Shown: one piece after another, positions 9,189 to 33,683 of the stretch
Layout of the letters: each line of letters starts with the position of its first letter
Numbering within the stretch: position 1 is the first letter of the stretch
Assembly: GCA_002419055.1 (NCBI GenBank)
Contig: DIFI01000017.1
Span: 41,160-105,159 of the forward strand
Source of the DNA: Peptococcaceae bacterium UBA5752
GTDB lineage: Bacteria > Bacillota > Dehalobacteriia > UBA4068
Length of the DNA: 64,000 nt
Reading direction: 5' to 3'
The notes under the pieces: model-generated
The model's input: the letters and a program-made list of their open reading frames with translations, nothing else
What the model was told of the DNA's origin: nothing
Databases searched by the model: none
Translations under genes and position numbers: made by a program

Positions 9189-9275
9189 CAAAAATGCTCC
9201 TTTCAAAAATCTTATAAAAAAAGAGTGTTGTACTGAATAAAGCAAACGCAAATCTAAAAGTTCACGTTGTTTGCA

Positions 9276-9705: not shown

Positions 9706-9890
9706 CATTCAGCTCAATACTCTACTTAAAATATTTGATGTCGTCTGAAAATCAATGAAATTACTATAATATCGAGTAGTTATTTAGAAAGCTGGATGCC
9801 ATTTTACCATTTTACCATTTTACAGACCCAGTGGCTTTGAGCCGCCATCTTTCGATGACCTTGCCTTATCTAAAACTTACTTTTGATTTT
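9706..9890. repeat. intergenic repeat family, copy 3 (diverged, full-length)
   Basis: atgcattcagctcaatactctac...gaaaatcaatgaa...tagttatttagaaagctggatgccatttt(accatttt x2)acagacccagtggctttgagccgccatctttcgatgaccttgcc; shares start, middle and CCATCTTTCGATG core with copies 1-2. Confidence 0.7.
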
Positions 9891-12107: not shown

Positions 12108-12126
12108 AAACAAGGGGGCGATTTAA

Positions 12127-12507
12127 ATAGAACCTAACAATCCTTATCAAAAATATAAGGAATTATCAATAAACACATTAACTCCTGAAGAATTGCTGAT
12201 CTTTACATATGATGAGCTATCTTTAAATATTAACAGGGCTATTTTAAGTATCCAAAAGAGAAAACCAGCAGATGCACATACCTATATCACCAAAGCGGAA
12301 AAAATCGTTATGTATCTTATCGATATACTTGATATCAAATACCCTATCTCAGATAAACTTTTACAAATCTACGAGTACATTTATCTTCAGTTGATTTATG
12401 CCAACACTTACAAAAACGAAAATACATTAACCAAAATATTGGAGATTGTCACGGAGATGAGAGCTACATGGCAGCAGGCGGAAAAGGAGATTCGCCAAAA
12501 ATTCTAA
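12127..12507 (+). CDS. fliS: flagellar export chaperone FliS (start codon uncertain)
   Basis: In-frame translation upstream of the track's TTG gives ...NPYQKYKELSINTLTPEELLIFTYDELSLNINRA..., the canonical FliS N-terminus; frame opens after TAA at 12124-12126 with GGGGG RBS at 12114-12118 but no canonical start (ATA at 12127). Confidence 0.75.
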   Translation: MEPNNPYQKYKELSINTLTPEELLIFTYDELSLNINRAILSIQKRKPADAHTYITKAEKIVMYLIDILDIKYPISDKLLQIYEYIYLQLIYANTYKNENTLTKILEIVTEMRATWQQAEKEIRQKF

Positions 12508-19200: not shown

Positions 19201-21049
19201 GCGTCATATCTATATAGTAGCCGGCAGCGACGTAGTAGCTAATGCTACCGCCTATAAAGAGCCGCCACAACCCGATTCTATCCACAGCTTCGACCATATC
19301 ATATTTCCGCGTACGGAGGGCGAAGATATTGCGGCAGTGATTGACATGGCCGCACTATCCCGCATCAAAGGCGAAGTGATAAGCCTATCACTGCCGGTAT
19401 ACTTGGAAAATGTCAGTTCTACCAACATCCGTGAGGATATTGACAATAACAGAGATATTTCCAATCTGGTTGACCCCATGGTACAGGAGTTCATCTACAA
19501 CAACAATCTCTATCTGCGTGAGCCTCAATACAAACAGTTACCGAACGTCCGGCAAGCCGAAGTGGAACGCTGGACTTCGGCAAATCCCGCCGATGTACAA
19601 CGTCTGTTAAATAAACTGTTGCCGGAGCGGGGTGAGGCAAATCGTGCGACAGCCGTTGCTTTAAGTAAAAGAGGAAGCGAATTTTTTCTGCTCAAAGATG
19701 ACAGCCAAGAGGCTAGTCCGGTAGGAATGATATCGCTGCACGAAGTGCAGATTTCGGAATTGATGCCTTTGTTGGGCAATACCCATTTGGCGGATAAAGT
19801 CCGCCAACGACAGGCCGGACGAGTATTGTTGATCACCGGCATATATATGAGCAAAGACAGTTGGGACAACTCTCAGCTTCTCTGCACCGAAGTATTTGGA
19901 TCAGCGCTGCGTAACGGCTGTACCCATGCTATGTTCTATCCAATCGACACCGCAGGAAACTGCAATTATGTCTTAGAGTTGCTGAAACGCCAAGGTTTTG
20001 TGGTTTTAGAGGACAATGACCCGCGGCAGCCGTTATATATTACCGATTTGCGTGCGCCTTTGGTGTTGCTCCGCAATATCGAGACATCTATGAAGGCGCC
20101 TTTTGCCAATTTACCGTCTGTATTGAAGGCGGCACAAGGGGCTCACTGGCGGTTGCAGACTGCCATGGCAGGACTCAAGCCGGGTCATCTGGTATTATCC
20201 GTAGATTCCAATATCATGCAGGAAAAGCTGATCCGCCGCATTACAGAACTTAACGGCGTACCGGCAAAACCCGTAGAGCCTCCGCAGTTTGGCCCCTTGA
20301 TGTGCGTTCCTTTCAGCAAGTTACTGCGGCGCAGTATAGTGCCGAATACAGTGACCAAGACAGTGCATACAGACAAAGTGTTTGAGCCAGATATCAGCAA
20401 ATTTTCTATTGAAGCATATCCCAATTATTTGCCGCTGGAATACCAAATTCGCACTATCAAATCATTTATGCGCCCGGTGATTATGGTGACTGATATGCTG
20501 CAAAGCGGCCACAGGTTAAGAACATTATCTCCGATTTTTAATCAACAGGGTATTGAGATCCACGCCGTATTAGCGGGAATATTATCCGGACGGGGCCGTG
20601 ATGTTGTCTCCACGCAAGGTTATCGTGTCGAATGCATCTATTTTGTTCCCAACCTTCATGGCTGGTGCATCGAGTCCACTCTCTATCCTTTCATCGGCGG
20701 AGATACGGTGCGCAGAAATGAAAGTCCTAAGGCCAATCTGCTACCCGCGGTCAACCTGATACTGCCCTATGCTTCTATTCGCATTTTCAACCAATTTCCG
20801 AGAAAAGCGGTATACGATTATTCGCTTGCATGTATGGAAAATGCCCGCGATATCATGCAGGTGTTGGAACAGGAATACGCCGCCCGCTTCGGACGCAATC
20901 TGACATTGAACCGCCTCTCTGAAGTTATCCACCTGCCGTTGCTGCCTGATAAGGGTAAATATATGCAATATGATTACAATCTTACGGCATCTGTTTATAT
21001 AAAAAATGATATCGAGCTGCTGTTGCGGCTGAGTAATCAGTTTCGATGA
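16211..21049 (+). CDS. giant multidomain protein: HD phosphohydrolase motif + long helical (HEAT/ARM-like) region + HxGH/ISSTxIR nucleotidyltransferase domain (NMN/NaMN adenylyltransferase-like) + type-I phosphoribosyltransferase-like domain
   Basis: HD motif ...NVHRMALYMARQL...ALTHDIGKFG...HIAANH...LIYADFR (nt ~16750-17080); NTase FFPGTFDPFSNSHKGIV ... ENVSSTNIRE (nt ~18940-19440); PRTase-like VIMVTDMLQSGHRLRTL (nt ~20477-20527); strong RBS; single uninterrupted ORF. Confidence 0.85.
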   Translation: MQIASEKKMLALLVQRLNDSTNPYVYSLKRKEVNAFLEQHGWAKKINDLLRMPTSVTWKRVLELSRDTLDYLCEMPDEGWLNFTLHFAIDLMFPKEEFALRRSKFSDGAVFLLTLMQLVYDEEKKAGLIPKSVEFSLLNKSEVEGESTAVEYNRLLKALRQEYVYEMMRLSQELSPYRSLEHIANVHRMALYMARQLKRSGVPVDLCLISGAALTHDIGKFGCQKGERVPYLHYFYTDRWCRQQNIPTIGHIAANHSVWDLELENLSAESLLLIYADFRIKQVTDNGVENTRVFTLKESFQVILEKLDNVDSSKRDRYLKVYDKLSDFEDYLRFLGVDTNMDGKELHPCCREASLMTGEEAVASLKLLGVEHNIALMHHFGNERLFGNILEAARTEKNWKNIRAYLGVFDEYFTYLSISQKVQTLAFLYELLMNREGDIRRQAASLLGNIIARFDISYKKELPAGVAEDDDITSLQMWEKYLEMIIHPSYKLTFQHKSWIGFTLKIVISSFFENCDEADRRPFMERLTKWFSSPDKEELVNFYLLDAINYLPLKFCTDKERSRLLTFAMDAAEGSISLLRASALRTLSYIVAIGYPLEQDEVRRLSALCVPCNDQEENTTLRMLKTQIRSCLSESDETELTAVSSDTISDIFLDNLKMATSWVIKTLNVDLLLSVAEQDPHSPYLLHIAAHFANLLKVSERVVVRHKAGAALLHIAPLLSYDQRNEIAVELLQGLEVGEYEFSKYIPEYLGQFALWLSTEELEELILQLNDLVYSPNTNVVAVAIATIGVLMECLNNRRDNFGETHQMQERRREYLLGILLKGLVGRDAARQESMLIIGQHFFASRKLADDDKRQLFGKCCKKLLSLISEYREGKLEFFYRAAVLNNIYRFISDSQLNHGEFVIEQFDKVAFFPGTFDPFSNSHKGIVEEMLQQGFEVMLAIDEYSWSKKTQPHFIRHQLANMTLADKFHVYVYPGSMPVNIANPQDLAMLRHSLPERHIYIVAGSDVVANATAYKEPPQPDSIHSFDHIIFPRTEGEDIAAVIDMAALSRIKGEVISLSLPVYLENVSSTNIREDIDNNRDISNLVDPMVQEFIYNNNLYLREPQYKQLPNVRQAEVERWTSANPADVQRLLNKLLPERGEANRATAVALSKRGSEFFLLKDDSQEASPVGMISLHEVQISELMPLLGNTHLADKVRQRQAGRVLLITGIYMSKDSWDNSQLLCTEVFGSALRNGCTHAMFYPIDTAGNCNYVLELLKRQGFVVLEDNDPRQPLYITDLRAPLVLLRNIETSMKAPFANLPSVLKAAQGAHWRLQTAMAGLKPGHLVLSVDSNIMQEKLIRRITELNGVPAKPVEPPQFGPLMCVPFSKLLRRSIVPNTVTKTVHTDKVFEPDISKFSIEAYPNYLPLEYQIRTIKSFMRPVIMVTDMLQSGHRLRTLSPIFNQQGIEIHAVLAGILSGRGRDVVSTQGYRVECIYFVPNLHGWCIESTLYPFIGGDTVRRNESPKANLLPAVNLILPYASIRIFNQFPRKAVYDYSLACMENARDIMQVLEQEYAARFGRNLTLNRLSEVIHLPLLPDKGKYMQYDYNLTASVYIKNDIELLLRLSNQFR

Positions 21050-21066
21050 GATTTTAGGAGTTTAAT

Positions 21067-22320
21067 ATGTACTATGCCAAATTAGATGAAAACTATATAT
21101 GTTCTTTAAAAGGCGATTTACCGGGGCAGAAAGTGCATCAATTGCCATCGGATGTATCTCGGACGGTTTTTTTGTTTGAGCGCGATCCGTTAACTTGCCG
21201 TGATGCTTTCGCCGTTACCCACCCTTGCCAATTGTCCGCGCAAACAGAGGATGTGACTTGGCTGGCATCTGAGAGTTTACCGTCGGCGGAAAAACTGCCG
21301 CTACAAGTGACAGAGCTAATCCGTAATGACCAACTGCGTGCAGTCAACAAATCGCATCCCCGCTGGAGAGAATTGCTAAATTGTACTGCTGCGGAGGGGA
21401 AAAAACGGGTCAATATTATCGCAGTAGGCGATGTCGGCGGTACTGTGCTTATTGGTCTGCGTCTATTGGGTGGCGATATACTTTCTTCTATCGGCATCTA
21501 TGACCTGTCGCCCACGACTTTAGACCGCTGGGAATTCGAAGTGGGACAAGTTTACTCTCCCTGGACCGAATATCAGCCTCCGCATGTAGCCATAATAGAT
21601 GAGGAAAACATCTTCGATTGCGATATGCTGGTCTTTTGCGCCACCGGCGGCGTGCCTCCGCTTGCGGAAAAAGGCGATGTACGTTTAGCACAGCTTGCCG
21701 TCAACAGCCGTTTAGTATCACATTATGCCAAACTGGCACGCCAGCGAAGTTTTGGCGGCATCTTTGCGGTTGTCAGCGATCCGGTTGATCTGCTTTGCCG
21801 CATAGCATGGTTGGAAAGTAACCGTAATCATGACGGCCGCTGGGACGGCAAGGGTTTATTCACGGCACAGGTGGAGGGCTACGGTTTAGGAGTTATGTAT
21901 GCGCGGGCAGCTTATTATGCCCGCCGCGACAGCCGCTTTGCTGCTTTTTTGAACGATGGCGCAGCTTATGGGCCTCACGGCTCCGAACTGGTTATTGCCA
22001 ATTCCCTGTCTGATTATGACGATGACCTATCAAGGGAATTGACGCGCCTGGCTGCCGAGGCTAATCTGGAAGCCAGGTCACGGGATTTCAAGCCCTTCAT
22101 TGCGCCTGCTCTTTCCTCCGCTGCTTATCAGATACTCGACACTTTGCGGGGACGCCCTCATCTCGGCGCAACTATGCTGGGTGATATCTTTTTCGGCGCT
22201 GTCAACCGGCGAGGGCCCTCCGGCATAGAGGTTTTTTCTCATCCCCTACCGCAAGAGCTGCTATCCCGTATCCAATATTCTGCTGCTGTTTTGCAAAATT
22301 TGGGAGAACACTATGAATAA
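21067..22320 (+). CDS. lactate/malate dehydrogenase-family (Ldh_1-like) NAD(P)-binding protein with ~100-aa N-terminal extension
   Basis: KRVNIIAVGDVGGTVLIGL (Rossmann GxGxxG), DMLVFCATG, SDPVDLL (cf. LDH TNPVDIL), GYGLGVMYARAAYYAR, GPHGSELV (cf. GEHGDS with catalytic His); TAGGAG RBS, 18-nt gap after upstream gene. Confidence 0.7.
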   Translation: MYYAKLDENYICSLKGDLPGQKVHQLPSDVSRTVFLFERDPLTCRDAFAVTHPCQLSAQTEDVTWLASESLPSAEKLPLQVTELIRNDQLRAVNKSHPRWRELLNCTAAEGKKRVNIIAVGDVGGTVLIGLRLLGGDILSSIGIYDLSPTTLDRWEFEVGQVYSPWTEYQPPHVAIIDEENIFDCDMLVFCATGGVPPLAEKGDVRLAQLAVNSRLVSHYAKLARQRSFGGIFAVVSDPVDLLCRIAWLESNRNHDGRWDGKGLFTAQVEGYGLGVMYARAAYYARRDSRFAAFLNDGAAYGPHGSELVIANSLSDYDDDLSRELTRLAAEANLEARSRDFKPFIAPALSSAAYQILDTLRGRPHLGATMLGDIFFGAVNRRGPSGIEVFSHPLPQELLSRIQYSAAVLQNLGEHYE

Positions 22321-23359
22321 AGATTTAGTTCTTGTGATGCCTCATTGCGGTGAAAAAGAAAAAACACTGCGTATGCGCAGCGTACTCAAATATGCCCTTG
22401 AAGGCCAAAAAATCAGCCGCCGTATTGAGACAGTCAAAGAGCTAGAGGATCTTCAAGGTTGCCGTATTCTGTTTGCGGTCAATCTGGGGGCATCGGGAAT
22501 CAACCTCAGTTTTTATGCGATGCTGAAAAAAATACGCCTGCACAGTCACATGTTCGAAGGTTGTGTCGGTGGAGTGATAGTGGACGGACAAAGTGTGCTT
22601 TATACAAAAGCTGTGGCCCGCGACCTAGTCTTTGCTGCAAATACGGCAGGCTGCGCCTTTATTGGCCGGCCGTTGGTGGAAGGACCGGCATCACTGGCCA
22701 ATTTTCATATTTTGGCGCAAATAAATGATACCGATGAATGGTCGGCTTATCACCGTGAGGCGCGTAGTATGGTCGAACGCATCTGTTCAACCAAGCCGCC
22801 ACGACCGGGACGCGGTGAGGTGCTGGTGCTTCATGCTTCTTCACGCAGTACATCCAACACTTTGATGCTGTGGGAGATGATCCGCTCTCATCTCGGCGAG
22901 CGTCCAATAACCGAAATATGTCTGCGTAACGGCACTGTCAAAGACTGTGTCGGCTGCCCTTATAAAACCTGCCTCCATTTTGGTGAGCAGAACAGTTGTT
23001 TTTACGGCGGAGTTTTAACCGAAAGCGTTTATCCGGCCATTCAGCGTTGTGACAGCCTAGTGATGCTCTGCCCCAATTATAACGACTCGGTATCCGCCAA
23101 TATTTCCGCCGGTATCAACCGGCTGACCGCTTTATTCCGCAATGTCCGTTTTTATGATAAAAAAACCCATGCTGTGATTGTCTCAGGTTATTCCGGCAGC
23201 GATATTGTGGCCGGACAGTTGATCGCGGCGCTTAATATGAATAAAAGTTTCTATCTGCCGCCGCGCTTTTGCATCTGCGAAACCGCCAATAACGTGGGTA
23301 GTATCCTCAAAGTCGAAGGTATAAGTGAGCGCGCCGCGGCGTTTGCTAAAACGATATAA
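22313..23359 (+). CDS. NADPH-dependent FMN reductase/flavodoxin-like fold protein with ~150-aa N-terminal extension
   Basis: C-terminal half VLVLHASSRSTSNTLMLWEMI...CDSLVMLCPNYNDSVSANISAGINRL resembles FMN_red/iron-sulfur flavoprotein family; start overlaps upstream stop by 8 nt. Confidence 0.55.
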   Translation: MNKDLVLVMPHCGEKEKTLRMRSVLKYALEGQKISRRIETVKELEDLQGCRILFAVNLGASGINLSFYAMLKKIRLHSHMFEGCVGGVIVDGQSVLYTKAVARDLVFAANTAGCAFIGRPLVEGPASLANFHILAQINDTDEWSAYHREARSMVERICSTKPPRPGRGEVLVLHASSRSTSNTLMLWEMIRSHLGERPITEICLRNGTVKDCVGCPYKTCLHFGEQNSCFYGGVLTESVYPAIQRCDSLVMLCPNYNDSVSANISAGINRLTALFRNVRFYDKKTHAVIVSGYSGSDIVAGQLIAALNMNKSFYLPPRFCICETANNVGSILKVEGISERAAAFAKTI

Positions 23360-23518: not shown

Positions 23519-24310
23519 ATGAGTAAGTCCAATGTTTTTATGATAATGCCTTTCGAAGATGCATTTTTTGAAGCATATGAAATGCTTAAAGAAAGATTTG
23601 CTGATAATTTTGAGTTTTGTCATGCAGGGGACGATGTAAATACACAACAAAACGTTCTTAAGGACATTGTACAAATGATTTGTAATGCAGATGTCATCAT
23701 CGCAGATTTAACAAACCTAAACTCAAATGTCTTTTATGAATTAGGGGGTTGCTCACACTCTTAAAAAAAAAATGTTATTATCATCACACAGAATATAAGT
23801 GAACTACCGTTTGATATTGAATCTTACAGAGCAATAGAATATTCTGTGCATTTTAAGAGATTTGATAATCTAATCAAAGAACTTGAGAGATACTTGAAAG
23901 GTGCAATAGACGGAACGGTAACTTTTGGAAATCCGGTGACAGATTTCTTATCTACTGTTAGCTCCACAATACAAAAAACTTATAAAACAGAAAGCTCTTT
24001 GGACGAGACAATTGGTGAGAAAGTATTCATTGATTTTTTGGTAGATATTGAAGAAAAAACATTATTATTTACAGATACCATTGTTGAAATGACGGCCGAT
24101 CTTAATAATATGACGGATGATATAACTAAAGAAACAGCAGAAATTAATCGTGTCAAACAAAACGGGGGCTCTGGTACCGCATTATTTATGCGTAAAACAG
24201 CAAAAATAGTTGCAGAAAGCATAAGTTTTTTTGCTAAGAAAGTAATAATCATAACTCTAGCTACTTATATTTATGACCGGAAATTGAGAAGAATTGTATT
24301 GGCCTTCTAG
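23519..24310 (+). pseudogene. nucleoside 2-deoxyribosyltransferase/Rcl-like (SLOG-like) domain protein interrupted by one in-frame TAA at 23762-23764
   Basis: ORFs 23519-23764 and 23846-24310 are in the same frame with no other stop between; joined reading gives ...ADVIIADLTNLNSNVFYELGGCSHS*LKKNVIIITQNISELPFDIESYRAIEY..., i.e. the NDT/Rcl motif (FE[IL]G with catalytic Glu, then hydrophobic K-P-V-I strand); stop sits at start of an A10 run. Confidence 0.5.
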
Positions 24311-24592
24311 AGAATAAGTATATCAATGAACCAGAAATAAAACTGAAATAATAACATTTCTTAAATCATTATTCCAAATGAAGCAGACAATAATTACTAC
24401 TTCCGAACAAACAAAAGATATGATAGATAGTTTTTCAGCCTTAAAACGATACAAAGTTATTTAGAGATTGACCTCAATAAGTTTTTACAATTTTCAGCAC
24501 AGATGGTAGCCTCTATTGATAGGATTTTGGATAAGAGTAAATTTGTGGTAGGACAAATAGACTTTTCCGAATAAATAAATATTCTTTGATTA

Positions 24593-24630
24593 AAAAGCCT
24601 TGATATAAATAAAATATCAAGGCTTTTTAT
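24593..24630. terminator. bidirectional rho-independent terminator
   Basis: stem aaagccttgata / tatcaaggcttt with loop, flanked by A-run and T-run; between convergent genes. Confidence 0.7.
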
Positions 24631-24632: not shown

Positions 24633-24911
24633 TTAACCTCCCGCAACGACCGGGAATATGGCAACTAAATCATTTGCGGCAAGTTTGGTATGGATTCCGT
24701 TAAGATGTTGGACATGCCGTCCGTTGACAAGGATGATGATTTCGGAGTTCAAATCCGTTTGCTCTTCGTCAAACACCGCATCCCTAAATTTATTACCGTA
24801 CTTTTTGGACAGTTGCCGTAACAAATCGGCGAGATCATCAACCGATTCATTCCAGCTTGTCCGTTTTTCGCCGGTATAATCGCGGATATAAGCAAAATAT
24901 TTGATCTCCAT
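24633..24911 (-). CDS. MoaD/ThiS-family sulfur-carrier (ubiquitin-like) protein
   Basis: 92 aa ending in ...FPVVAGG (C-terminal Gly-Gly), AAGGGGTG RBS; last gene of the AOR operon. Confidence 0.7.
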   Translation of the reverse strand: MEIKYFAYIRDYTGEKRTSWNESVDDLADLLRQLSKKYGNKFRDAVFDEEQTDLNSEIIILVNGRHVQHLNGIHTKLAANDLVAIFPVVAGG

Positions 24912-24950
24912 ACTCTCACCCCTTAAAGTAATATCTTAACACATCATACC

Positions 24951-25730
24951 TTATTTATCAGAATCAAGATACTCATCCAAATGCAAGCCGTCTTTGAGCC
25001 TTGTCGCTGCCCGCTTGGTCTTACAATAATTACAAAGCTGTAACTCCTCGATATTACCTACCGTTTCGCCCAATTTTTTGCGAACATGCTCCAACGACTC
25101 CGGCGTTGTGAAATACTCACCGCAATCCCGGCAGCGCAATAACTCAAACGTCTTTTCCCAAATGGTGCGGTTTCCTTCTGCTTCGGTCATCTCGATTGCC
25201 TGCGTAGGACATATAATGGCGCACGAGCCGCAGCCAATGCAATCCGCCGCCGGTTCGTTAAAGGCCGTACCGATCTTCTTTTTTGTCCCCCGGTTGAGCG
25301 TAGAAATCGCATTAGTGCCTAATTCCTCGCAAGCTTTGACGCACAAACCGCAAAGGATGCATTTACTGTCCGGATCGGCTTCTAAACGGTCGAACGGTTC
25401 GACATGATAGCGTGCAAGCAACCCTTTGATTCTCGCACTGTCCGGCGCAATTAAATTATACAATGCCAGCAATATCTTGCGTCTGGCCGCAATCATTTCA
25501 CTGTTAGTGAATACTTCCATGCCGTCGGCTACAGGATAAGTGCAGGAGGCCACATATTGAGTTCTCCCGTTTTCATGTACTTCGACCATACATAAACGGC
25601 ATGATGCCAAACCAGGCAGCGCCTCTGAATGGCATAAAGTAGGTATCTCAATGCCGTTGCGCCGTGCCACATCCAGGATTTTTTCGCCGGGATTGGCCGC
25701 ATACGTTTTCCCATTTATGATTATTTGCAT
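24951..25730 (-). CDS. 2Fe-2S ferredoxin-type + 4Fe-4S cluster protein (NuoG/HydC N-terminal-like electron-transfer subunit)
   Basis: Start at internal ATG (MQIIINGKTY...) with AAAGGAGG RBS; CHSEALPGLASCRLCMVEV (2Fe-2S), CILCGLCVKAC and CIGCGSCAIICP (4Fe-4S). Confidence 0.7.
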   Translation of the reverse strand: MQIIINGKTYAANPGEKILDVARRNGIEIPTLCHSEALPGLASCRLCMVEVHENGRTQYVASCTYPVADGMEVFTNSEMIAARRKILLALYNLIAPDSARIKGLLARYHVEPFDRLEADPDSKCILCGLCVKACEELGTNAISTLNRGTKKKIGTAFNEPAADCIGCGSCAIICPTQAIEMTEAEGNRTIWEKTFELLRCRDCGEYFTTPESLEHVRKKLGETVGNIEELQLCNYCKTKRAATRLKDGLHLDEYLDSDK

Positions 25731-25746
25731 CTTATCTCGCCTCCTT

Positions 25747-27543
25747 TTAATGCACTCGGATTGCATCCACCGCACAGCGTTCACGGCAACTGTTGCAATT
25801 GATACATTTTGCTTCATCCAAAACATGAGGCTGCTTTTTCTCGCCGCTAATGGCCGCCGTCGGACATGATTTTGCACACAAGCCGCAGCCGATACAAGCT
25901 TCTTGATCAATGTAAAGCTTTGTCAAGTTCTTACAAACTCCGGCCGGACAACGTTTATCTTTGATGTGAGCTTCAAATTCATCGCGGAAATTTTTAATAT
26001 TAGAAAGTACAGGATTTGGCGCTGTTTTTCCAAGGCCGCACAACGAATTAGCCTTGACCATTGACCCGATTTCTTCCAATAATTCGATATCCCCTTCTTG
26101 CCCCTTTCCTTCGCAAATATCGTTGAGGATCTTCAGCATACTTTTGATACCTTCACGGCAAGGCACGCATTTTCCGCATGATTCTTCGGACAAAAATTTC
26201 AGGTAATAGCGGGCAAATTCTACCATACAGGTGCGGTCGTCAATGACGATCATGCCGCCGGAACCCATCATTGATCCTTCCGCGATCAGCGAATCATAGT
26301 CGATTGGCAAATCAAGTTTGCTTTCCGGAATACAGCCTCCGGAAGGACCGCCCGTTTGTACCGCTTTAAACTTACGTTTTTTCTCGATGCCGCCGCCGAT
26401 GTCAAATATGATCTCCCGCAATTTGATACCCATCGGTACTTCCACCAAGCCGGTATTATTGATTTTGCCGACCAAAGCGAAAACTTTGGTTCCTTTACTC
26501 TTTTCACTGCCGATTGAGGCAAACCAATCAGCGCCTTTACTGATGATCACCGGCACATTCGCCCAGGTTTCCACATTATTGATGATTGTCGGCTTGCCCC
26601 ATAAGCCTTGGTTTGCCGGAAACGGCGGTTTGGACGTCGGTTCACCGGTTGAGCCTTCGATTGAATGAATTAAGGATGTTTCCTCGCCGCAGACAAATGC
26701 GCCGCCACCGCGTACCACTTCAGCGTCAAACGCAAACCCGCTGCCAAAAATATTTTGACCCATAACTCCTCTTGCATGTGCATCGGCAATCGCCTTTTTC
26801 ATGTTTTCCACGGCCAGGCCATATTCATCACGGATATACAGGAATGCACGATTAGCGCCGATTGCATAACCGCATATAGCCATACCTTCCAATACAGTAT
26901 GCGGGTCTCCTTCCATTATCGAACGGTCCATAAATGCACCCGGGTCGCCTTCGTCGCCGTTGCAGATAACATATTTGATGTCTCCTTGAGCTTTGGCAGC
27001 AAACGACCATTTTAAACCGGTCAGAAAACCGCCGCCGCCTCTACCGCGCAAGCTGGATTTTCTTATTTCATCTATTACCTCTTGCGGAGTCATCGTCTTT
27101 AACACTTTTTCCAGTGCTTGATAACCGCCTTTGGCAATGTAATCATCAATGCTGTCATTTGCTATACATCCACAATGACGCAAAGCAATCCTAAATTGTT
27201 TCTTTTCGAACGACCAATCATTCTTGGATTGGATCTTTGCATTTTGTTGTTTATCAAAATACAGCAGTCTGTCGATTACTTCGTCTTTAATAATGCTTCG
27301 TTCAATGATCTCCTGAACATCTGTGGTTTTAACATGAATATATGTAATTTCTTGCGGCGTAATATGAACCAACGGGCCTTTTTGGCAAAGGCCATGGCAA
27401 CCTGTTTTTTTGATATCGGCAACAACTTCAACATCCAAATCCAGTTTAGATATTATTTTTTGCATAGTTTGGTATATTTTCATACTGCCACTTGCCTGGC
27501 ATCCGGTGCCGCAGCAAACAAATATCGTTTTTTTATTTTGCAT
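25747..27543 (-). CDS. NuoF/HydB-like NAD(H)-binding FMN + Fe-S subunit (51-kDa family) with N-terminal thioredoxin-like and C-terminal 2x[4Fe-4S] domains
   Basis: GGGGFLTGLKWSF, ICNGDEGDPGAFMDRSIMEGDPH (FMN/NADH site), ESCGKCVPCREG (N3 cluster), C-terminal CIGCGLCAKSCP...CINCNSCRERC. Confidence 0.9.
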   Translation of the reverse strand: MQNKKTIFVCCGTGCQASGSMKIYQTMQKIISKLDLDVEVVADIKKTGCHGLCQKGPLVHITPQEITYIHVKTTDVQEIIERSIIKDEVIDRLLYFDKQQNAKIQSKNDWSFEKKQFRIALRHCGCIANDSIDDYIAKGGYQALEKVLKTMTPQEVIDEIRKSSLRGRGGGGFLTGLKWSFAAKAQGDIKYVICNGDEGDPGAFMDRSIMEGDPHTVLEGMAICGYAIGANRAFLYIRDEYGLAVENMKKAIADAHARGVMGQNIFGSGFAFDAEVVRGGGAFVCGEETSLIHSIEGSTGEPTSKPPFPANQGLWGKPTIINNVETWANVPVIISKGADWFASIGSEKSKGTKVFALVGKINNTGLVEVPMGIKLREIIFDIGGGIEKKRKFKAVQTGGPSGGCIPESKLDLPIDYDSLIAEGSMMGSGGMIVIDDRTCMVEFARYYLKFLSEESCGKCVPCREGIKSMLKILNDICEGKGQEGDIELLEEIGSMVKANSLCGLGKTAPNPVLSNIKNFRDEFEAHIKDKRCPAGVCKNLTKLYIDQEACIGCGLCAKSCPTAAISGEKKQPHVLDEAKCINCNSCRERCAVDAIRVH

Positions 27544-28021
27544 CTTCGATCCCTCCTTGATATTGTTGGAGTATTTGTCTCAAGGAAGCAGGTGTCAAAT
27601 TGCCATGATATTCATCATTGATTACCGCAACAGGTGCTAGTCCGCAAGCGCCTATACAGGCAACCGTTTCCAATGAAAACAATCCGTCGGCGGTAGTTTC
27701 CCCGGGTTCGATACCGAGAATCGTTTCTATTTCCGAAAGCAGGTTTAAAGAGCCTTTAATATGACAGGCAGTTCCATCACACACCTTTATAATATACTTA
27801 CCCTTGGGGGTAAGGCTGAATGCTTTATAAAATGTAGCCATTCCACAAACCTTGACTAATGGAACATTAAGGTATTGAGCAACGGTCTTCATTGCTTCCG
27901 CAGGCAAATAATTATAATGTCTTTGTATATCTTGCAAGATTGCCAGCAAAAATCGGCGTTCCGGCAGATATTTTTGGGCAATCTTTAAAGTCTCCGATTT
28001 TATTTGCGATATTTCACTCAT
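27533..28021 (-). CDS. NuoE/HydA-gamma-like [2Fe-2S] thioredoxin-like subunit
   Basis: CDGTACHIKG...CIGACGLAPV motif; start set to ATG (MSEISQIK) with GGGGGG RBS. Confidence 0.85.
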   Translation of the reverse strand: MSEISQIKSETLKIAQKYLPERRFLLAILQDIQRHYNYLPAEAMKTVAQYLNVPLVKVCGMATFYKAFSLTPKGKYIIKVCDGTACHIKGSLNLLSEIETILGIEPGETTADGLFSLETVACIGACGLAPVAVINDEYHGNLTPASLRQILQQYQGGIEDAK

Positions 28022-28094
28022 AATTATCCCCCCAGCCATTGAGAAAGAGAGGGAAAGAAGACCAATACTCCTTTCCCCATTCTTTCATTTTTTT

Positions 28095-29909
28095 TTAAAG
28101 CTGTTTCAAATTCAAATCTTGCATTTTCTCTGCAGTCGGTACACCGGATGGGTTCCAACCGCGCAATTGATAATATTCGGGCAGCATTTCATGTAAACGG
28201 TTGACGCTTCCCTTATATGCGCCATTCTTTTGTGGCTCATTCAAGATTCTCGGCGGCAGCGTATCGTCTGCGCCTGTAAAACCACAGGCGTTATTAAAGA
28301 CACGCTCCAGGTTCCAGATCCGTTCGCCGCATTTCATTAATTCTTCCCCGGTATACTCAAACCCGGTTCCGGCTGATAATACTTTGGCAATGATATCAGC
28401 GTCAAGCGCAAATGTTGTAAATAGACAGAAGCCGGCAGCATCAACTGCGGAAGTCAAATCCTGGAATATCTTGCAAACTGCAGCTTTACCTTCGGTAACA
28501 GCCGGGTCCAGCTTCATCGGAATGCCGAGGATTTCCGGCGAAGTCATATATCCACGAACATGGCAGCCGCCACGATTGGATGTTGCATATTCAAGTCCGA
28601 TACCTTGTAATGTACGTGGCTCGTAGGCAGGCATTTCCTGCTTTTTAACGCTCATTGACAATTCGGCATGGCCGTAATGTTCGGCCAAACGATACGAACC
28701 TTCGGCCAATAAGTTACCGATACCCTCACGGTAAGCGGTTTTTTCGACCAGCTCTTTTAATATTGCTGCATTACCAAATGACAGATCACAACCGGCATCT
28801 TCTTTGGGCATATAACCGCTTTCATAAAGCTCCATCGCGCAAGCAATCGTAGTCGGCATGGAAATTGCATCAATACCCAATTCATTACAGCGGAAGTTTG
28901 CTTGACAGATGGCGTCAATATCGCTGATACCACAGTCGGCGCCAAAGCCCCAGCCTGCTTCATACTCTGGGCCTTCGCCAAATCCCGCATATGGCTTGAA
29001 TGTGCGTGTGACCCTGCCACAACCTATAACACAAGAAAAACATCCTTTATTACGAACAAGATTCTTGTGCTCAATCATATACTCACCGCTCGTCTTGTCC
29101 GCCCATTCAATAGTGCCCGAATCCCTGAAGTTACGAACCGGCAAACCATTGGATTGGTCAAGAATATTGATAAGTATCTGCGTACCGTAGGCCTTTAATC
29201 CGGCGCCGGTGACAGGATTATCTTTTAATGCTTTTGTTGCCTCAGTAATAGCTGTTGCAAATCTATCCCTATTTGCTACATAAACCGGTTTATTGCCTTT
29301 AACTGCAATGGCCTTTAAATTTTTAGAACCCATGACGGCACCGACACCGCTTCGTCCGGCGGCTCTGTTCATTTCGTTCAAAATACAAGCAAATTTGCAT
29401 AGGTTTTCACCGGCAGGCCCGATACAGGAAATTTTTGCTCTTTCGCTGGTTTCGGTACGCAACAGATCAGTTGTGTCGGGCACTTCTTTGCCCCAAATAT
29501 GAGAGGCATCTTTAATTTCAACTTTATCGTTATCGATCCACAGATAAACCGGTTTTTCGGATTTGCCTTCGATAACAAAGCCATCATACCCCGCAAACTT
29601 CATTTCGGCGCCAAATTCGCCGCCTGAGTTTGAACTGGCAATCGTATTAGTTAACGGACCGCGTGTTATTACCATGAAACGGCCGGATGACGGAGATCCG
29701 GTGCCAGTCAAAGGCCCTGTCAAATAATACATATTATTTGCCGGATCCAACGGAGCTACATTAGGACCGACTTCCTCACAATACATTTTTGTCCCCAGCC
29801 CACGCCCGCCAATATATTCACGTGCATATTCCTGGTTTAAGGACTCGGTCGAAATTGTACCGTTTGTTAAATTGACTCTTAATAACTTACCTTGATAACA
29901 ACTGGACAT
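28095..29909 (-). CDS. tungsten-type aldehyde:ferredoxin oxidoreductase (AOR family)
   Basis: 604 aa; N-terminus MSSCYQGKLLRVNLTNGTISTESLNQEYAREYIGGRGLGTKM and full-length AFOR N/C domain pattern; GAGGAGGTG RBS. Confidence 0.9.
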   Translation of the reverse strand: MSSCYQGKLLRVNLTNGTISTESLNQEYAREYIGGRGLGTKMYCEEVGPNVAPLDPANNMYYLTGPLTGTGSPSSGRFMVITRGPLTNTIASSNSGGEFGAEMKFAGYDGFVIEGKSEKPVYLWIDNDKVEIKDASHIWGKEVPDTTDLLRTETSERAKISCIGPAGENLCKFACILNEMNRAAGRSGVGAVMGSKNLKAIAVKGNKPVYVANRDRFATAITEATKALKDNPVTGAGLKAYGTQILINILDQSNGLPVRNFRDSGTIEWADKTSGEYMIEHKNLVRNKGCFSCVIGCGRVTRTFKPYAGFGEGPEYEAGWGFGADCGISDIDAICQANFRCNELGIDAISMPTTIACAMELYESGYMPKEDAGCDLSFGNAAILKELVEKTAYREGIGNLLAEGSYRLAEHYGHAELSMSVKKQEMPAYEPRTLQGIGLEYATSNRGGCHVRGYMTSPEILGIPMKLDPAVTEGKAAVCKIFQDLTSAVDAAGFCLFTTFALDADIIAKVLSAGTGFEYTGEELMKCGERIWNLERVFNNACGFTGADDTLPPRILNEPQKNGAYKGSVNRLHEMLPEYYQLRGWNPSGVPTAEKMQDLNLKQL

Positions 29910-29912
29910 AAC

Positions 29913-30392
29913 TTATGACACCTCCTCAAACACTTTTTTGAACTTCTCGGCATAAAGTGCTTTTTTGGCCATGACGACTTCACTGGCTTCTTTGTATTCA
30001 ATCGCGCCATTGGGACAAGCTTTTGCGCATGCCGGTTCACCTTTACATAAATCACATTTAAGTACGCGTTTTGTTTCAACATCATACGAAATATTACCGA
30101 AAGGACAAGCGCTGACACACAGCTTACAACCAATACATTTTTGCTTTTCCCATACCACTCCGTTTGTTGCGGTATCTCTGCCAAGCGCTCCGGTAGTGCA
30201 AACATTCATACACGGTGCATCTTCGCAATGCATACACATCAAAGGTACTCCTAAGCCTATCCGTTCCCAAATAAGAGTATGTACTCTTGACTTTGCCGGG
30301 TTAAAAGCATCTTCTTTGGCAAATGAACATGCTAATTCGCAGTTCCGGCAGCTGGCACATTTTTCCGGAGAAATAATCAATATCTTTTGCAT
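29913..30392 (-). CDS. polyferredoxin-like 4x[4Fe-4S] protein (AorA-like electron-transfer subunit)
   Basis: 159 aa with four CxxCxxCxxxCP-type motifs (CASCRNCELAC, CMHCEDAPCMNVC, CIGCKLCVSACP, CDLCKGEPACAKACP); weak RBS. Confidence 0.8.
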   Translation of the reverse strand: MQKILIISPEKCASCRNCELACSFAKEDAFNPAKSRVHTLIWERIGLGVPLMCMHCEDAPCMNVCTTGALGRDTATNGVVWEKQKCIGCKLCVSACPFGNISYDVETKRVLKCDLCKGEPACAKACPNGAIEYKEASEVVMAKKALYAEKFKKVFEEVS

Positions 30393-30574
30393 TTTCCGGC
30401 TGCAACCGTTATTTACGGTGCAGACTTCACCCCCCTTTTAATAATTTGTAACCTTACTTTATCTCGTGTAACATTTTTGATATTATCAAACACTATTTCC
30501 TTTTATCATTTTACAATTTGATTATATCATATTATCTTGATTTATCAACTATTTTTTACTTAATAATTCATAAA

Positions 30575-30610
30575 ACAAAAAAGAGGCACAAATTTGCCTC
30601 TTTTTTGTTT
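30575..30610. terminator. bidirectional terminator between IclR gene and AOR operon
   Basis: aagaggca-caaatt-tgcctctt hairpin flanked by A-run and T-run. Confidence 0.65.
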
Positions 30611-30659
30611 TATGCTATCTATAGCAGCTATTTCTTATTAAAGTAAACAAATTATTTTA

Positions 30660-31442
30660 CTAATATAAAACAACATTATCAACTATTTCCGATAATTGTT
30701 TACCGTACCTGAGAAGTAAATGTATTATTCTCTTCATCTGCATATCAGTTATTTGTGATGGTTCACCGGAAACCGAAACTGCCCCGACAATTTTATCACC
30801 AAAACCAAAAACAGGGACAGCCAGGGAAATTGTTTCATCATATTCGAGATCATTGACTGCATAACCGCGCAAGCGTATTTCAATCAATTCCTTATTTAAT
30901 ATTTCCGGATCCGTAATTGTTTTTTTCGTATAAGCGGTTAAACCGGTTTTTTTGAGTATCCTTTCCCGTTCATATTCAGGCAAATAAGCAAGAAAAACCT
31001 TTCCTGCCGCACTTGCATGCATCGGCACAGAAGCCCCGATCAGATTATGTCCATATATCAAGTGTGTTTTTTCACGCACCAGAACGCTGGTTGCTTTTTC
31101 TCCGCTGCGGATACAAAAATAAATTCGGATACCTATCTCATCATAAAACTCCGTAAGCAATGCGCCAATTTCCTGATAAGGAAGATCTTTACGCAAATAA
31201 CTCTCGCCGACACGAAAAGCCTCAGGACCAATGCGATATTTTTTATTTTCCGGATTCTGCAAAACATACTTTTCGCGCACAAGAGTAGCCATATAATGAT
31301 GTATTGTGCTTTTATTTATGTCTAACGATTCCGATAGGTCGTTAATCGAAAGTTCTTCATTTACAGTTGCCATATAACTTAAGATCTGGAGGCATTTTTG
31401 TGCCGAAGTAATTATTCTTGCCTCTTTTTCTTTGGTTGCCAT
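30660..31442 (-). CDS. IclR-family transcriptional regulator
   Basis: N-terminal wHTH (LQILSYMATVNEELSINDLSESLDINKSTIHHYMATL) plus C-terminal IclR effector domain, 260 aa. Confidence 0.85.
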   Translation of the reverse strand: MATKEKEARIITSAQKCLQILSYMATVNEELSINDLSESLDINKSTIHHYMATLVREKYVLQNPENKKYRIGPEAFRVGESYLRKDLPYQEIGALLTEFYDEIGIRIYFCIRSGEKATSVLVREKTHLIYGHNLIGASVPMHASAAGKVFLAYLPEYERERILKKTGLTAYTKKTITDPEILNKELIEIRLRGYAVNDLEYDETISLAVPVFGFGDKIVGAVSVSGEPSQITDMQMKRIIHLLLRYGKQLSEIVDNVVLY

Positions 31443-31486: not shown

Positions 31487-32680
31487 TTAGTTGCTGCCAA
31501 AAACAATTAGTGTCATTGTTTGGTTGATATGCATACCGTTATACTGTTCACCGTAAGTGTTAAATCCAAGCAGTGGAGCAATACTTATATCATCTATAAG
31601 CTCCTCAAGATTACCCTCACGCTCCGATTCACGATAGCGCAAAATACAATTAAATGCGATAATGGCGCTGATATCCTGCATTTCATGCTGTATTTTTTTG
31701 ATTACATCCTGCGTTTCCTGGAGTATTTGGCCGGGACGCATAATCGTCACACTTGTCCCCTCGGTTATGCGGCTGAAAAACATCAATGCTCTTTCTTCAT
31801 TTATAACTTTAAAGATGCTGCGCATATAATATTCGTCTTCAAAGGAAAGAGCTAATGGATGCTTCATAAACACATCCTCATTTAACGCATCTACCTCAAT
31901 GCCCAGAGCACGAGCATATTCATCGGCAGCGGGGTGTCCGTTGAATTCGTAAACAATCCGATTTTCCAAATCAGCTTTGGTAATTTTTAACCTTTTAGTA
32001 GTCGGCAAATAACTGTTGGTTTGCACGATCCGCATCGGTACATCAGTTTTAAAGATCAGCAGTACCATTGCATTTTCATATGTTTTGCCCAATGCATGAA
32101 TAATCGTTTTTTTAAAGTTAGAATCATCACCGGCAGAACCGCCGGCAACCCGTAGAGTACGGGCAATTTTGCTTAATCCAAGCATAATATATTCTTCAAC
32201 CGATTGCAAGCCATCGATCAATACCAGTCCGGTGTAAATGGAACTGTCAAGTTCATCAACAGAAATTCCTAATTGTGAACAAGCCTTTTCCACCGCCTTT
32301 TTGGGCGCGCCGATAGGGTTATCGCTGATTCGTTTACCAACGCCAATCCCTATCGCCAGCTCGTGCGAGGAAAAACTCATTGCTGAAAAGCTTTTACTCA
32401 TAAACCCATGCTGAGTAAATTCACCGGCCGAGGTGCATCCGACAAACTCTACATCGCGATAAAAATCATCCTGTGCTGCATAGCTATTGATAGCCTCAGA
32501 AATCTTCAGCTGATCGTAATGACTGGAAACAAAAAACAGCACGCATTTCAGGTCATCCTGCTTAATTTCTTGCAGCACTTCACCAACTGCCAAATTCTCA
32601 TTTGCGTTAGTGCTATAGCCTGTCTTTACGCTGATACCGCCCAATGAACTCCCCCCTAACATGGATTTTCTTACTAACAT
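31487..32680 (-). CDS. FIST-domain-like sensory protein (tentative)
   Basis: 397 aa; pattern ...VLFFVSSHYD...GCTSAGEF...VAGGSAGDDSN... reminiscent of FIST N/C domains; assignment by motif memory only. Confidence 0.4.
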   Translation of the reverse strand: MLVRKSMLGGSSLGGISVKTGYSTNANENLAVGEVLQEIKQDDLKCVLFFVSSHYDQLKISEAINSYAAQDDFYRDVEFVGCTSAGEFTQHGFMSKSFSAMSFSSHELAIGIGVGKRISDNPIGAPKKAVEKACSQLGISVDELDSSIYTGLVLIDGLQSVEEYIMLGLSKIARTLRVAGGSAGDDSNFKKTIIHALGKTYENAMVLLIFKTDVPMRIVQTNSYLPTTKRLKITKADLENRIVYEFNGHPAADEYARALGIEVDALNEDVFMKHPLALSFEDEYYMRSIFKVINEERALMFFSRITEGTSVTIMRPGQILQETQDVIKKIQHEMQDISAIIAFNCILRYRESEREGNLEELIDDISIAPLLGFNTYGEQYNGMHINQTMTLIVFGSN

Positions 32681-32810: not shown

Positions 32811-33683
32811 TTAGTCGTTCAAGTATTTTCTGATACCTTTGAATAGATAGCCTTTGGCGACTTGTTCAACAGGCGGTAACTCGATCATATACTGCGTACG
32901 CTCCTGCAACGCCTGTAAATCAAAACCGTTTTTCAATATCAGTTTTTCAGCAAATCCAGATACTGAAATTGCCTTATGTGGACAGCCGTAAATACAGCGG
33001 AAGCAATTTACACAATCGCCTCCCCAAACAGGTTTGCCGTCTATTATAGTTATGTTATTTCTCGGACAGTTGTTTTTACACCAGGAGCATCCTGTACAAC
33101 CATCAGTAACTTTGAGATTTTTGGCAAATGATCCGCCTGATCTTTTTTCTAATGCTCCAAGTTTGGCAAATATCCGATCCAAGAAAAACGGCTTTGCCCG
33201 CATCCTTTTTGCGGAAAGCATATCGGATACGGCTTTTTCTGTTTTGCTAGGTAAGATTCTTAATATCATAGCGGCAAGATCATCTTTTAGAGAAACAAAT
33301 ACATTGGCAGGCATGATAAACATGCTTTCGTAATATACATCATAACCCTTATGCTCTAACTTTTTAATAACTGCAATGCGGCTGGCAGTATTGGGTGGTA
33401 TTTCACCACCGCCGGAGACCGATATTACAGCCGCCGGTAGGTCATCTACTGCTGCCGAACAGTCAATCCACTCGTCAACCGGTTTAGGGCTGGTCATAAT
33501 ATACACAGGATAAAGCATAATCAGCAAATCCGCAGCTATATCTTTATGATCCGCTGTGTTCAATTCGGTTTTAGACACTTCAATGCCCCGCTTTGCCAAA
33601 GCATTTACTATGCTTTCGGCAATAAGCGCTGTACCGCCGGTACCACTAAAATAGACTAGATGAACCGATTCAATATCTTTCAT
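32811..33683 (-). CDS. EFR1-family ferredoxin (flavodoxin-like domain + 2x[4Fe-4S])
   Basis: VHLVYFSGTGGTALIAE flavodoxin-like start; CTGCSWCKNNCP and CVNCFRCIYGCP clusters. Confidence 0.6.
   Translation of the reverse strand: MKDIESVHLVYFSGTGGTALIAESIVNALAKRGIEVSKTELNTADHKDIAADLLIMLYPVYIMTSPKPVDEWIDCSAAVDDLPAAVISVSGGGEIPPNTASRIAVIKKLEHKGYDVYYESMFIMPANVFVSLKDDLAAMILRILPSKTEKAVSDMLSAKRMRAKPFFLDRIFAKLGALEKRSGGSFAKNLKVTDGCTGCSWCKNNCPRNNITIIDGKPVWGGDCVNCFRCIYGCPHKAISVSGFAEKLILKNGFDLQALQERTQYMIELPPVEQVAKGYLFKGIRKYLND

Follow-up and report, generated by a model that had tools for sequence, protein, structure and literature searches.

The subject of this analysis is a six-gene cluster, worS-worL-worC-worB-worA-worX, on the minus strand of a 64-kb stretch of the genome of Peptococcaceae bacterium UBA5752 (the window, meaning the whole of the DNA analyzed), where it occupies positions 24633 to 30392. 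All six open reading frames (ORFs) were present at their expected coordinates when the window was checked, and family scans bore out the initial annotation, which had described a minus-strand operon with genes of these types. The first gene, worS (29913-30392), encodes 159 amino acids with 16 cysteines and matches Fer4_11 and other 4Fe-4S dicluster families. It is followed by worL (28095-29909; 604 amino acids), which carries the AFOR_N (1e-82) and AFOR_C (3e-145) domains of tungsten aldehyde oxidoreductases (AORs). Downstream of worL are NuoE-, NuoF-, and NuoG-N-terminal-like genes: worC (27533-28021, or from an alternative ATG at 28039; 162 or 168 amino acids), a NuoE family member (PF01257 2Fe-2S_thioredx, 1e-52); worB (25747-27543; 598 amino acids), which combines the Nuo51 flavin mononucleotide (FMN) domain (PF01512 Complex1_51K, 4e-46) and PF10589 NADH_4Fe-4S (5e-33) with an N-terminal thioredoxin-like 2Fe-2S domain and a C-terminal 2x[4Fe-4S] domain (Fer4, 5e-12); and worA (24951-25730; 259 amino acids), with Fer2_4 and two 4Fe-4S motifs. 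The last gene, worX (24633-24911; 92 amino acids), belongs to the ThiS/MoaD family (PF02597, 2e-15; TIGR01687 moaD_arch, 5e-21) and ends in Gly-Gly; its product is predicted to be a MoaD/ThiS-like cofactor maturation (pterin processing) protein and no subunit of the enzyme. E values this low exclude chance as an explanation for the family assignments of the six wor genes.

The six genes form one operon, with a single promoter, a single terminator, and cistrons that are tightly spaced or overlapping (gaps from worS to worX of 3, 73, -11 [an overlap], 16, and 39 nt). Upstream of worS, on the same strand, lies a gene for an IclR-family transcription regulator (30660-31442; 260 amino acids; HTH_IclR, 3e-11; IclR_C, 6e-31), and the IclR transcript runs into an intrinsic terminator at 30569-30614 on the minus strand, a 20-bp stem with a U-run (centroid energy, -27.6 kcal/mol; z -6.35 versus shuffled sequences). 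Because the IclR gene ends in this strong terminator of its own, the wor genes are served by their own promoter, found on the minus strand at 30521-30548 (TTGATA, 16 nt, TG-n-TATAAT) with 11 of 12 consensus positions and the extended -10 TG. The operon ends in a 16-bp stem with a U-run (24591-24629, minus strand; -19.9 kcal/mol; z -5.9), which none of 200 shuffled sequences matched in folding energy. The control region had been placed beside an IclR regulator, and the regulator does adjoin the operon upstream, but its gene is separated from the wor promoter (30548-30521) by a terminator. Nor is the catalytic subunit fused to a flavin module, as had been suggested, since worL and worCBA are separate cistrons of one operon.

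Two translation starts needed attention. The start of worA is the ATG at 25730 rather than the TTG at 25910 of the ORF list, which would make the gene overlap worB, because the 259-amino-acid product is on record and its homologues have 245 to 260 residues and begin with M-x-I-x-I-D/N-G. For worC the start at 28021, giving 162 amino acids, is the most likely one, since it is called so on an identical public contig, present in a JGI metagenome and in an NCBI assembly, and the 168-amino-acid form is not on record. The 159-amino-acid WorS has no exact database record, but its N terminus nevertheless agrees with that of WorS from Acetomicrobium mobile.

All five enzyme subunits match PDB entry 9mqx, the cryo-electron microscopy structure of WorABCSL from A. 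mobile, and this entry is the top PDB match for WorL, WorS, and WorA. The A. mobile enzyme oxidizes aldehydes with simultaneous reduction of ferredoxin and NAD+ (PMC12318220; the class is described in PMC13328260). Class IV tungsten oxidoreductases (WORs) are encoded in two types of operon, SLCBA as in Eubacterium limosum and CBASL as in A. mobile, with variable placement of worX (PMC13328260), and the order S-L-C-B-A-X on one strand at this locus is that of the published type-1 scheme. PMC9304861 describes Wor-Bfu enzymes as "type 2" BfuABC members, whose A subunit has only clusters A1, A2, and A4. We are confident that the locus is a type-1 (worS-worL-worC-worB-worA plus worX) Class IV WOR operon encoding Wor-Bfu, or WorABCSL, an electron-bifurcating tungsten aldehyde oxidoreductase. 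By homology to the A. mobile complex, the enzyme very probably oxidizes aldehydes while reducing NAD+ and ferredoxin together, and it would contain tungsten, bifurcate electrons, and assemble with three SL units per ABC unit. The initial annotation had proposed a tungsten AOR that is coupled to NAD(H), might bifurcate electrons, and has a HydABC/NuoEF-type module in place of the FAD subunit AorC; the 9mqx matches and the BfuB-specific residues described below support this proposal, and the homologous A. mobile enzyme has proved to be such an enzyme. The novelty that it implied has been overtaken by publications from 2021 to 2026, including a census of 102 such operons (PMC13328260). The host's enzyme is an uncharacterized addition to a class that has been purified, solved, and catalogued since 2021, and in itself adds little, although the locus does extend Class IV WORs to an uncultured Clostridia lineage. 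It also has a use in annotation: labels such as "NADH-quinone oxidoreductase subunit E/F/G" or "bidirectional hydrogenase diaphorase" at this locus should be changed to WorC, WorB, and WorA.

By homology to the A. mobile enzyme, the tungsto-bispyranopterin site of WorL would convert an aldehyde to the corresponding acid by oxidation. The [4Fe-4S] cluster of this subunit would hand the electrons on to WorS, which has four such clusters and whose copies would stack by their C-terminal helices into a "nanowire." The C-terminal Zn finger and helix of WorA would plug into this wire, so that electrons could travel from A4 through A2 and A1 to B1 and then to the single FMN of WorB. At the FMN/Fe-S center of WorBC electrons would be bifurcated, with an exergonic branch to NAD+ and an endergonic branch leading through the WorC [2Fe-2S] cluster and the C-terminal WorB clusters B3 and B4 to ferredoxin (Fd) or flavodoxin. 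The net reaction would be 2 RCHO + NAD+ + 2 Fd(ox) -> 2 RCOOH + NADH + 2 Fd(red). A second FMN or NAD site, which the initial annotation had suggested looking for, does not appear in the Pfam scan of any subunit; the complex has one flavin domain. Aldehyde oxidation linked to ferredoxin alone is unfavorable when aldehyde is low and acid is high, and NAD+ reduction pulls the reaction forward (PMC13328260); coupling to NAD+ would thus allow removal of scarce aldehyde despite abundant acid.

The physiological direction might instead be the opposite one, with the complex confurcating electrons from NADH and reduced ferredoxin to reduce carboxylic acids to aldehydes for alcohol formation. Enzymes of the AOR family are reversible, with acid reduction documented for the monomeric AORs of acetogens (PMC12727526), and Bfu enzymes are described as generally reversible in PMC9304861. 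However, the potential of the acid/aldehyde couple is close to that of ferredoxin or lower, and a requirement for NADH (about -280 mV) as co-donor would make acid reduction harder (PMC13328260). No alcohol dehydrogenase gene adjoins the operon, and the E. limosum orthologue has been assigned to acetaldehyde detoxification (PMC11725836). Given the thermodynamic argument of PMC13328260, an acid-reducing role is very unlikely, even if it is the least unlikely of the alternatives considered here.

Slightly less credible again is a non-bifurcating, NAD+-only aldehyde dehydrogenase, in which the NuoEF-like module would act as a diaphorase in the manner of AorC or of HoxEFU/FdsBG, with no role for ferredoxin. 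The NuoE/NuoF/NuoG-N-terminal architecture is shared with non-bifurcating enzymes among the PDB matches, such as the formate dehydrogenase of Rhodobacter capsulatus (6tg9) and complex I. Against this, the nine best PDB matches of WorB, with E values of about 1e-199 or lower, are all B subunits of the BfuB type from Bfu-family enzymes, while non-bifurcating NuoF matches at no better than 1e-125. The nine include the bifurcating hydrogenase subunits 7q4v_B (Acetobacterium woodii HydB, 7e-239), 8a6t_B (Thermoanaerobacter kivui HydB), 7t2r_B (A. mobile NiFe-HydB), and 7p5h_B, as well as NfnB (9n5u_B); A. mobile WorB itself (9mqx_B; 4e-218, 54% identity) ranks fourth, behind A. woodii HydB, T. kivui HydB, and A. 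mobile NiFe-HydB. WorC behaves similarly, since its PDB matches are BfuC subunits of bifurcating enzymes (7t2r_C at 7e-44, then 9n5u_C, 8a6t_C, and, fourth, 9mqx_C at 1e-41), and it has the NuoE-like thioredoxin fold of BfuC with [2Fe-2S] ligands at Cys 81, 86, 122, and 126.

The residues of WorB are also those of a BfuB subunit. Ligands of the B5 [2Fe-2S] cluster are found at C10/11, C15, C49, and C53, in an N-terminal CC-x3-C...C-x3-C arrangement; those of B1 are C456, C459, C462, and C502; the B2 site has C439, C477, H526, C532, and C537; and eight cysteines between residues 550 and 590 correspond to B3 and B4. Beside the FMN is a GAFMD motif (residues 202 to 206), of which A203 and M205 align with A202 and M204 of 7t2r_B, the B subunit of a NiFe-Bfu enzyme. 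WorB thus has the full BfuB signature of sites B2 to B5, the conserved His, and the Ala and Met next to the flavin, and 17 further BfuB sequences, drawn from loci with wor genes and from related ones, keep these positions. Non-bifurcating homologues lack the B2 to B5 sites, the conserved His, and the GAFMD Ala and Met, according to PMC9304861. The domain set of BfuB (Nuo51 FMN, NuoF 4Fe-4S, Fer4 types, and SLBB) is present too, with SLBB alone weak.

A third possibility, with still less in its favor, is a Class IV WOR acting on something other than an aldehyde, by analogy with the benzoyl-CoA reductase BamB. The WOR family does include non-aldehyde enzymes, and most of its clades are uncharacterized (PMC13328260). 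However, the three nearest solved relatives of WorL, namely 9mqx_D (1e-232, 57% identity), the Pyrococcus furiosus AOR 1aor (1e-204), and 8c0z_A (1e-192), are broad-spectrum aldehyde oxidoreductases of clade 87. In addition to AFOR_N and AFOR_C, WorL has all four cysteines of the [4Fe-4S] cluster (C290, C293, C297, and C495, equivalent to C288, C291, C295, and C494 of P. furiosus AOR), and its E317 and H450 are the counterparts of the catalytic Glu313 and His448 of that enzyme. BamB (4z3w_A) is far more distant, with a partial match at 5e-66; the wor cluster contains no BamDE genes and, in the Pfam scan, no Hdr-like or CCG-domain genes. Assignment to the other Class IV WOR, BamBCDEFGHI benzoyl-CoA reductase, was rejected on this comparison.

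The remaining alternative concerns partnership. The initial annotation had noted that its NAD-linked reading would fail if the NuoEF-like genes belonged to an adjacent hydrogenase or formate dehydrogenase. A Pfam scan of essentially all window ORFs of at least 150 amino acids found no gene for either enzyme in the 64 kb, and an adjacent hydrogenase or formate dehydrogenase was rejected as the true partner of these genes. The scan returned flagellar genes, genes of unknown function, Tgl, DegV, MsrAB, transporters, and a distant 2-oxoacid:ferredoxin oxidoreductase (POR), and WorSL is the only possible partner of WorABC within this window. The linkage also recurs elsewhere. A search of genome contigs with a WorA profile, in which at least 80 loci were examined, showed that the closest full-length WorA homologues among the matches listed adjoin WorS-WorL. 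Among those same matches, the order S-L-(X)-C-B-A was found in L003, L004, L006, L008, L011, L016, and L028, and C-B-A-S-L in L013 and in a Methanofollis metagenome-assembled genome (L018). Loci with this linkage come from Oscillospiraceae, Clostridia, Tissierellia, Syntrophomonas, Spirochaetaceae, and Methanofollis, and S-L adjoins C-B-A in at least 15 independent loci, archaeal ones included. The same operon is present in five closer relatives, one of which has two tandem copies.

WorS, whose gene is translationally linked to worL by the 3-nt gap, has its best PDB match in 9mqx_E (1e-42, 47% identity, end to end) and its second in AorA (8c0z_C, 6e-38). Its 16 cysteines fall into four CxxCxxC...C motifs, equal to four [4Fe-4S] sites, and the alignment to 9mqx_E reaches the last residue, with Y147, F151, and V154 at the hydrophobic helix positions occupied by F145, F149, and I152. 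WorS is therefore predicted to be a polyferredoxin nanowire subunit with four [4Fe-4S] clusters and a C-terminal stacking helix. WorA has its best PDB match in 9mqx_A over its full length (1e-52, 40% identity), the next being partial and at 4e-27. Sixteen cysteines are invariant in an alignment with 23 homologues, and they make up the A1 [2Fe-2S] site (C33, C44, C47, and C63), two [4Fe-4S] sites (C124-134 and C164-174; A2 and A4), and a Zn finger (C200, C203, C233, and C236). Residues 64 to 123 contain no cysteine and so no A3 site, the Zn finger stands in place of A5, and a helix at residues 234 to 248 in the AlphaFold model (mean predicted local distance difference test score, 80.6) corresponds to the C-terminal adaptor. 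Sites A1, A2, and A4 with a Zn finger and no A3 are what defines the A subunit of a type-2 Bfu enzyme (PMC9304861, PMC12318220). The best Foldseek match of this model is again 9mqx_A (E 4e-24; TM scores, 0.75/0.79), the next target being twelve orders of magnitude worse. That worCBA belong to some other enzyme and lie beside the AOR genes by accident is the least likely reading of all: worL and worC are 73 nt apart with a hairpin between them, promoter-like hexamers occur inside the 3' end of worL (28197-28170), and small BfuA modules serve other enzymes elsewhere, but no catalytic gene for a hydrogenase, formate dehydrogenase, POR-Bfu, or carbon monoxide dehydrogenase lies near the cluster in the window, the S-L/C-B-A adjacency recurs as described above, WorA carries the Zn finger and C-terminal helix that dock WorS in 9mqx, and all six wor genes are co-induced in E. 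limosum (PMC11725836).

Several observations weigh against identifying the locus as an operon for a bifurcating WorABCSL. Identity to the characterized enzyme is only moderate, at 40 to 57%. The SLBB domain of WorB is weak, scoring 21.6 bits against a Pfam cutoff of 27 bits. Residue 477 of WorB, in the B2 site, is Cys at this locus and Thr in A. mobile WorB, and the site could therefore hold a [2Fe-2S] cluster instead of Zn; Cys is found in most Firmicute loci and Thr in A. mobile, L013, L018, and L028, and both states are common across the Bfu family according to Schut 2022. In the C-terminal helix of WorA, the A. mobile interface residues R236 and Y238 are replaced by K239 and A241, so that a 3:1 assembly is not guaranteed. 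A WorA-like small BfuA also pairs with enzymes of the xanthine dehydrogenase (XDH) family in two loci (L005 and L009); since such adaptors serve other partners, WorA alone is not diagnostic. Finally, the hairpin that follows worL could in principle terminate transcription fully and split the operon.

In the two XDH-linked loci (L005, 492-8738; L009, 47-8738), genes for BfuC, BfuB, and a WorA-like small BfuA immediately follow those for an XDH-family molybdoenzyme (MoCoBD_1/2, Ald_Xan_dh_C) and for a GltD/HdrA-like flavoprotein carrying CCG domains. Such an arrangement would couple the Bfu module to an XDH-family enzyme, a partner that is not among the Bfu partner types described in the available text of Schut 2022. 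In another locus (L084, 10369-12174), from a relative with 82% identity, WorB does not align in its C-terminal ferredoxin domain, the eight B3/B4 cysteines are missing from the alignment, and there is no Fer4 Pfam match, which could reflect a frameshift or assembly error or a genuine loss of the ferredoxin-binding domain.

Among characterized systems, A. mobile WOR1 (PDB 9mqx; Schut 2021; Feng 2025, PMC12318220) is the closest, with the same five subunits and near full-length alignments. The predicted cofactors are likewise the same: W-pterin and [4Fe-4S] in L; four [4Fe-4S] in S; [2Fe-2S] in C; A1, A2, A4, a Zn finger, and a helix but no A3 in A; and FMN, B1, B3, B4, and B5 in B. The two differ in gene order (SLCBA plus X here versus the type-2 CBASL in A. 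mobile), in host (a Clostridia bacterium, inferred to be mesophilic from its G+C content of ~41%, versus a thermophilic member of the Synergistetes), and in WorA, which is 12 residues longer at its C terminus here and has the altered helix interface already mentioned. E. limosum WOR1 (wor1SLXABC), compared through its published description, is likewise of the type-1 order, in which S-L comes first, and also has worX within the cluster and a Firmicute host; worX lies at the operon end here and between the L and ABC genes in E. limosum. That enzyme detoxifies acetaldehyde during growth on lactate (PMC11725836, PMC13328260).

More distant systems share parts of the complex. AorABC of Aromatoleum aromaticum (PDB 8c0z), of the NAD-linked type N of clade 87, resembles it in its catalytic subunit (8c0z_A, homologous at 1e-192) and its nanowire subunit AorA (8c0z_C, homologous at 6e-38) and is linked to NAD+ or benzyl viologen, so that the NAD+ acceptor is common to both, but its AorC is replaced here by a three-subunit FMN/Fe-S Bfu core, and the Pfam scan found no FAD/pyridine-nucleotide oxidoreductase gene in or beside the operon. 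The HydABC/BfuABC enzymes (7q4v from A. woodii, 8a6t from T. kivui, 7p5h from Thermotoga maritima, and 7t2r, the A. mobile NiFe-HydABCSL) are nearest for WorB and WorC (7e-239 to 3e-206) and have the same cluster ligands in their B and C subunits. They differ in that WorA lacks the H-cluster domain and sites A3 and A5, and the third substrate is delivered by a separate WorSL. A monomeric, ferredoxin-only AOR (Class I, the P. furiosus type) was rejected, as worL is linked to worS and then to worCBA.

Two features of RNA and DNA at this locus offer leads beyond the enzyme. One bears on the origin of the 3:1 subunit imbalance required for the nanowire, for which the candidate is a hairpin between worL and worC. 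This stable minus-strand hairpin (28050-28078), picked up by a terminator scan, lies after the worL stop codon and before worC begins; its stem is G/C rich and 11 bp long, and the folding energy of its 101-nt context is -26.2 kcal/mol (z -2.5). Comparable hairpins of differing sequence follow worL in L084, both copies of L083, L003, L004, L006, L016, and L028. Transcript levels of worSL in E. limosum exceed those of worXABC by about 3-fold (PMC11725836), and the A. mobile enzyme is an ABC(SL)3 complex with a 3:1 SL:ABC stoichiometry (PMC12318220). Both values were left unexplained at the RNA level, and the hairpin fits both; it may be a leaky terminator or a 3' stabilizer that yields more SL than CBA. 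The tandem arrangement in L083 (955-13222; GCA_030625885.1, DAOUPZ010000004.1) consists of two complete worSLCBA clusters with a long hairpin after each worL; worX follows the first cluster, and no worX was called after the second.

The second lead concerns the control of tungsten-enzyme expression without a tungsten cofactor (Tuco) riboswitch, for which the candidates are a FIST-IclR pair and a palindromic operator. Directly upstream of the IclR gene is a gene for a FIST_N plus FIST_C protein (31487-32680, minus strand; 397 amino acids; Pfam FIST, 1e-34; FIST_C, 5e-23), a candidate sensor partner of IclR. Its NCBIfam NosP score of 307 bits falls below the 450-bit cutoff, and the protein is therefore not a NosP equivalog. 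The FIST gene lies directly upstream of IclR-worSLCBAX in five loci, the window and L084, L085, L086, and L087; the position of IclR is thus shared with four related loci, whereas the outer flanks of the five differ. Intergenic alignment of these loci gave a mean identity of 52% for the IclR-worS spacer, with the -35 TTG and extended -10 TGATATAaTCAA blocks conserved in all five. Just downstream of the -10 element is a palindrome, TTTGATAATATCAAA (30476-30490, no strand assigned), a candidate operator of 14 to 15 nt of which 14 nt, TTGATAATATCAAA, are invariant in all five loci and the 13-mer core occurs as a single exact copy in the window. The palindrome is a putative operator, with the IclR protein as its probable binder. 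Should FIST sense aldehydes, acids, or redox state, this would be the first effector-sensing system identified for a tungsten enzyme.

In E. limosum, by comparison, wor1 lies behind a Tuco riboswitch (RF01055) and a CcpA-like site (PMC11725836). Upstream of worS there is no RF01055 (Tuco/molybdenum cofactor [Moco]) riboswitch at gathering score, none at E <= 10 in 30250-30750, where only chance matches to the terminator hairpin appeared, and none in the four closest FIST-IclR-wor loci. Tuco/Moco riboswitch control of worS as in E. limosum was rejected on this lack of a match. The sole RF01055 match in those four loci (74.5 bits; 11180-12266, minus strand) is in L087, upstream of a tupA-like gene (PBP_like_2/SBP_bac_11) beside the FIST-IclR-wor block. 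In the FIST-IclR clade, the Moco/Tuco riboswitch appears to govern a transporter and not the enzyme operon.

The 5' untranslated region (5' UTR) of worS holds a further conserved element (30400-30435, minus strand), in which a strong Shine-Dalgarno-like GGGGGGTGA, some 33 nt before the worS ATG, precedes a small hairpin whose end adjoins the start codon and whose 3' arm abuts a weak proximal GGA. These blocks are conserved in the five loci, with a consensus of 10 pairs, 4 of them compensatory, and a weak energy of -7.3 kcal/mol; there is no Rfam family match. The hairpin may adjust Shine-Dalgarno spacing or sequester the ribosome binding site, an assignment for which covariation is modest to weak. 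Just upstream of FIST, a gene of the EFR1 family (32811-33683, minus strand; NCBIfam 1e-40) encodes a flavodoxin-like N terminus and a C-terminal 2x[4Fe-4S] domain. The idea that its product serves the WOR as a dedicated acceptor of electrons is not supported, because the gene is not conserved in related loci.

These elements can be joined in a tentative scenario, which we regard as possible but more doubtful than probable, in which this Clostridia sub-clade exchanged Tuco control for the FIST and IclR pair, with IclR as repressor or activator, acting at TTTGATAATATCAAA and the hairpin after worL sets about three WorSL per WorABC. The FIST-IclR linkage, the invariant palindrome, the lack of a Tuco riboswitch upstream of worS, and the proposed role of the hairpin may be new.

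Other genes in the window give some picture of the host. Flagellar genes, the spore coat transglutaminase Tgl, DegV, and a G+C content of ~41% are consistent with an uncultured, flagellated Clostridia lineage that, with its Tgl gene, is apparently spore forming. For FliI, WorL, and WorA, the closest homologues with a name come from metagenome-assembled genomes labeled "Clostridia bacterium" or similarly. At the window edge, about 30 kb from the wor operon, are POR subunits (61162-63908, minus strand; POR_N/PFOR_II, TPP_enzyme_C); acetaldehyde is a known by-product of PORs (PMC11725836). Three tandem cyclic di-GMP-I riboswitch aptamers (9341-9416, 9472-9547, and 9784-9875, minus strand; 61.8, 60.8, and 35.2 bits) precede the flagellar rod/FliF/FliG/FliH/FliI/FliK operon (8805-9281 to 1331-2857), where a triple arrangement is unusual.

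Converging on the wor operon is a plus-strand unit of three closely spaced or overlapping genes (16211-23359). The first encodes 1612 amino acids with no Pfam domain and a weak stretch resembling nicotinamide mononucleotide (NMN)/nicotinic acid mononucleotide (NaMN) adenylyltransferases (residues 907 to 1113, 1.8e-09); the second, 417 amino acids with a faint Rossmann N terminus of the lactate dehydrogenase type; and the third, 348 amino acids with a C-terminal FMN_red domain. PADLOC and NCBIfam scans gave weak hints only, and the unit may be NAD related. Next to it, an 81-amino-acid ORF (23519-23764, plus strand) with a faint TIR-effector-like PADLOC match (E 0.007) looks like a truncated domain, and the neighboring gene arrangement differs on one related contig. 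A fluoride riboswitch was also found at 47110-47169 on the minus strand (58.3 bits, E 1e-13).

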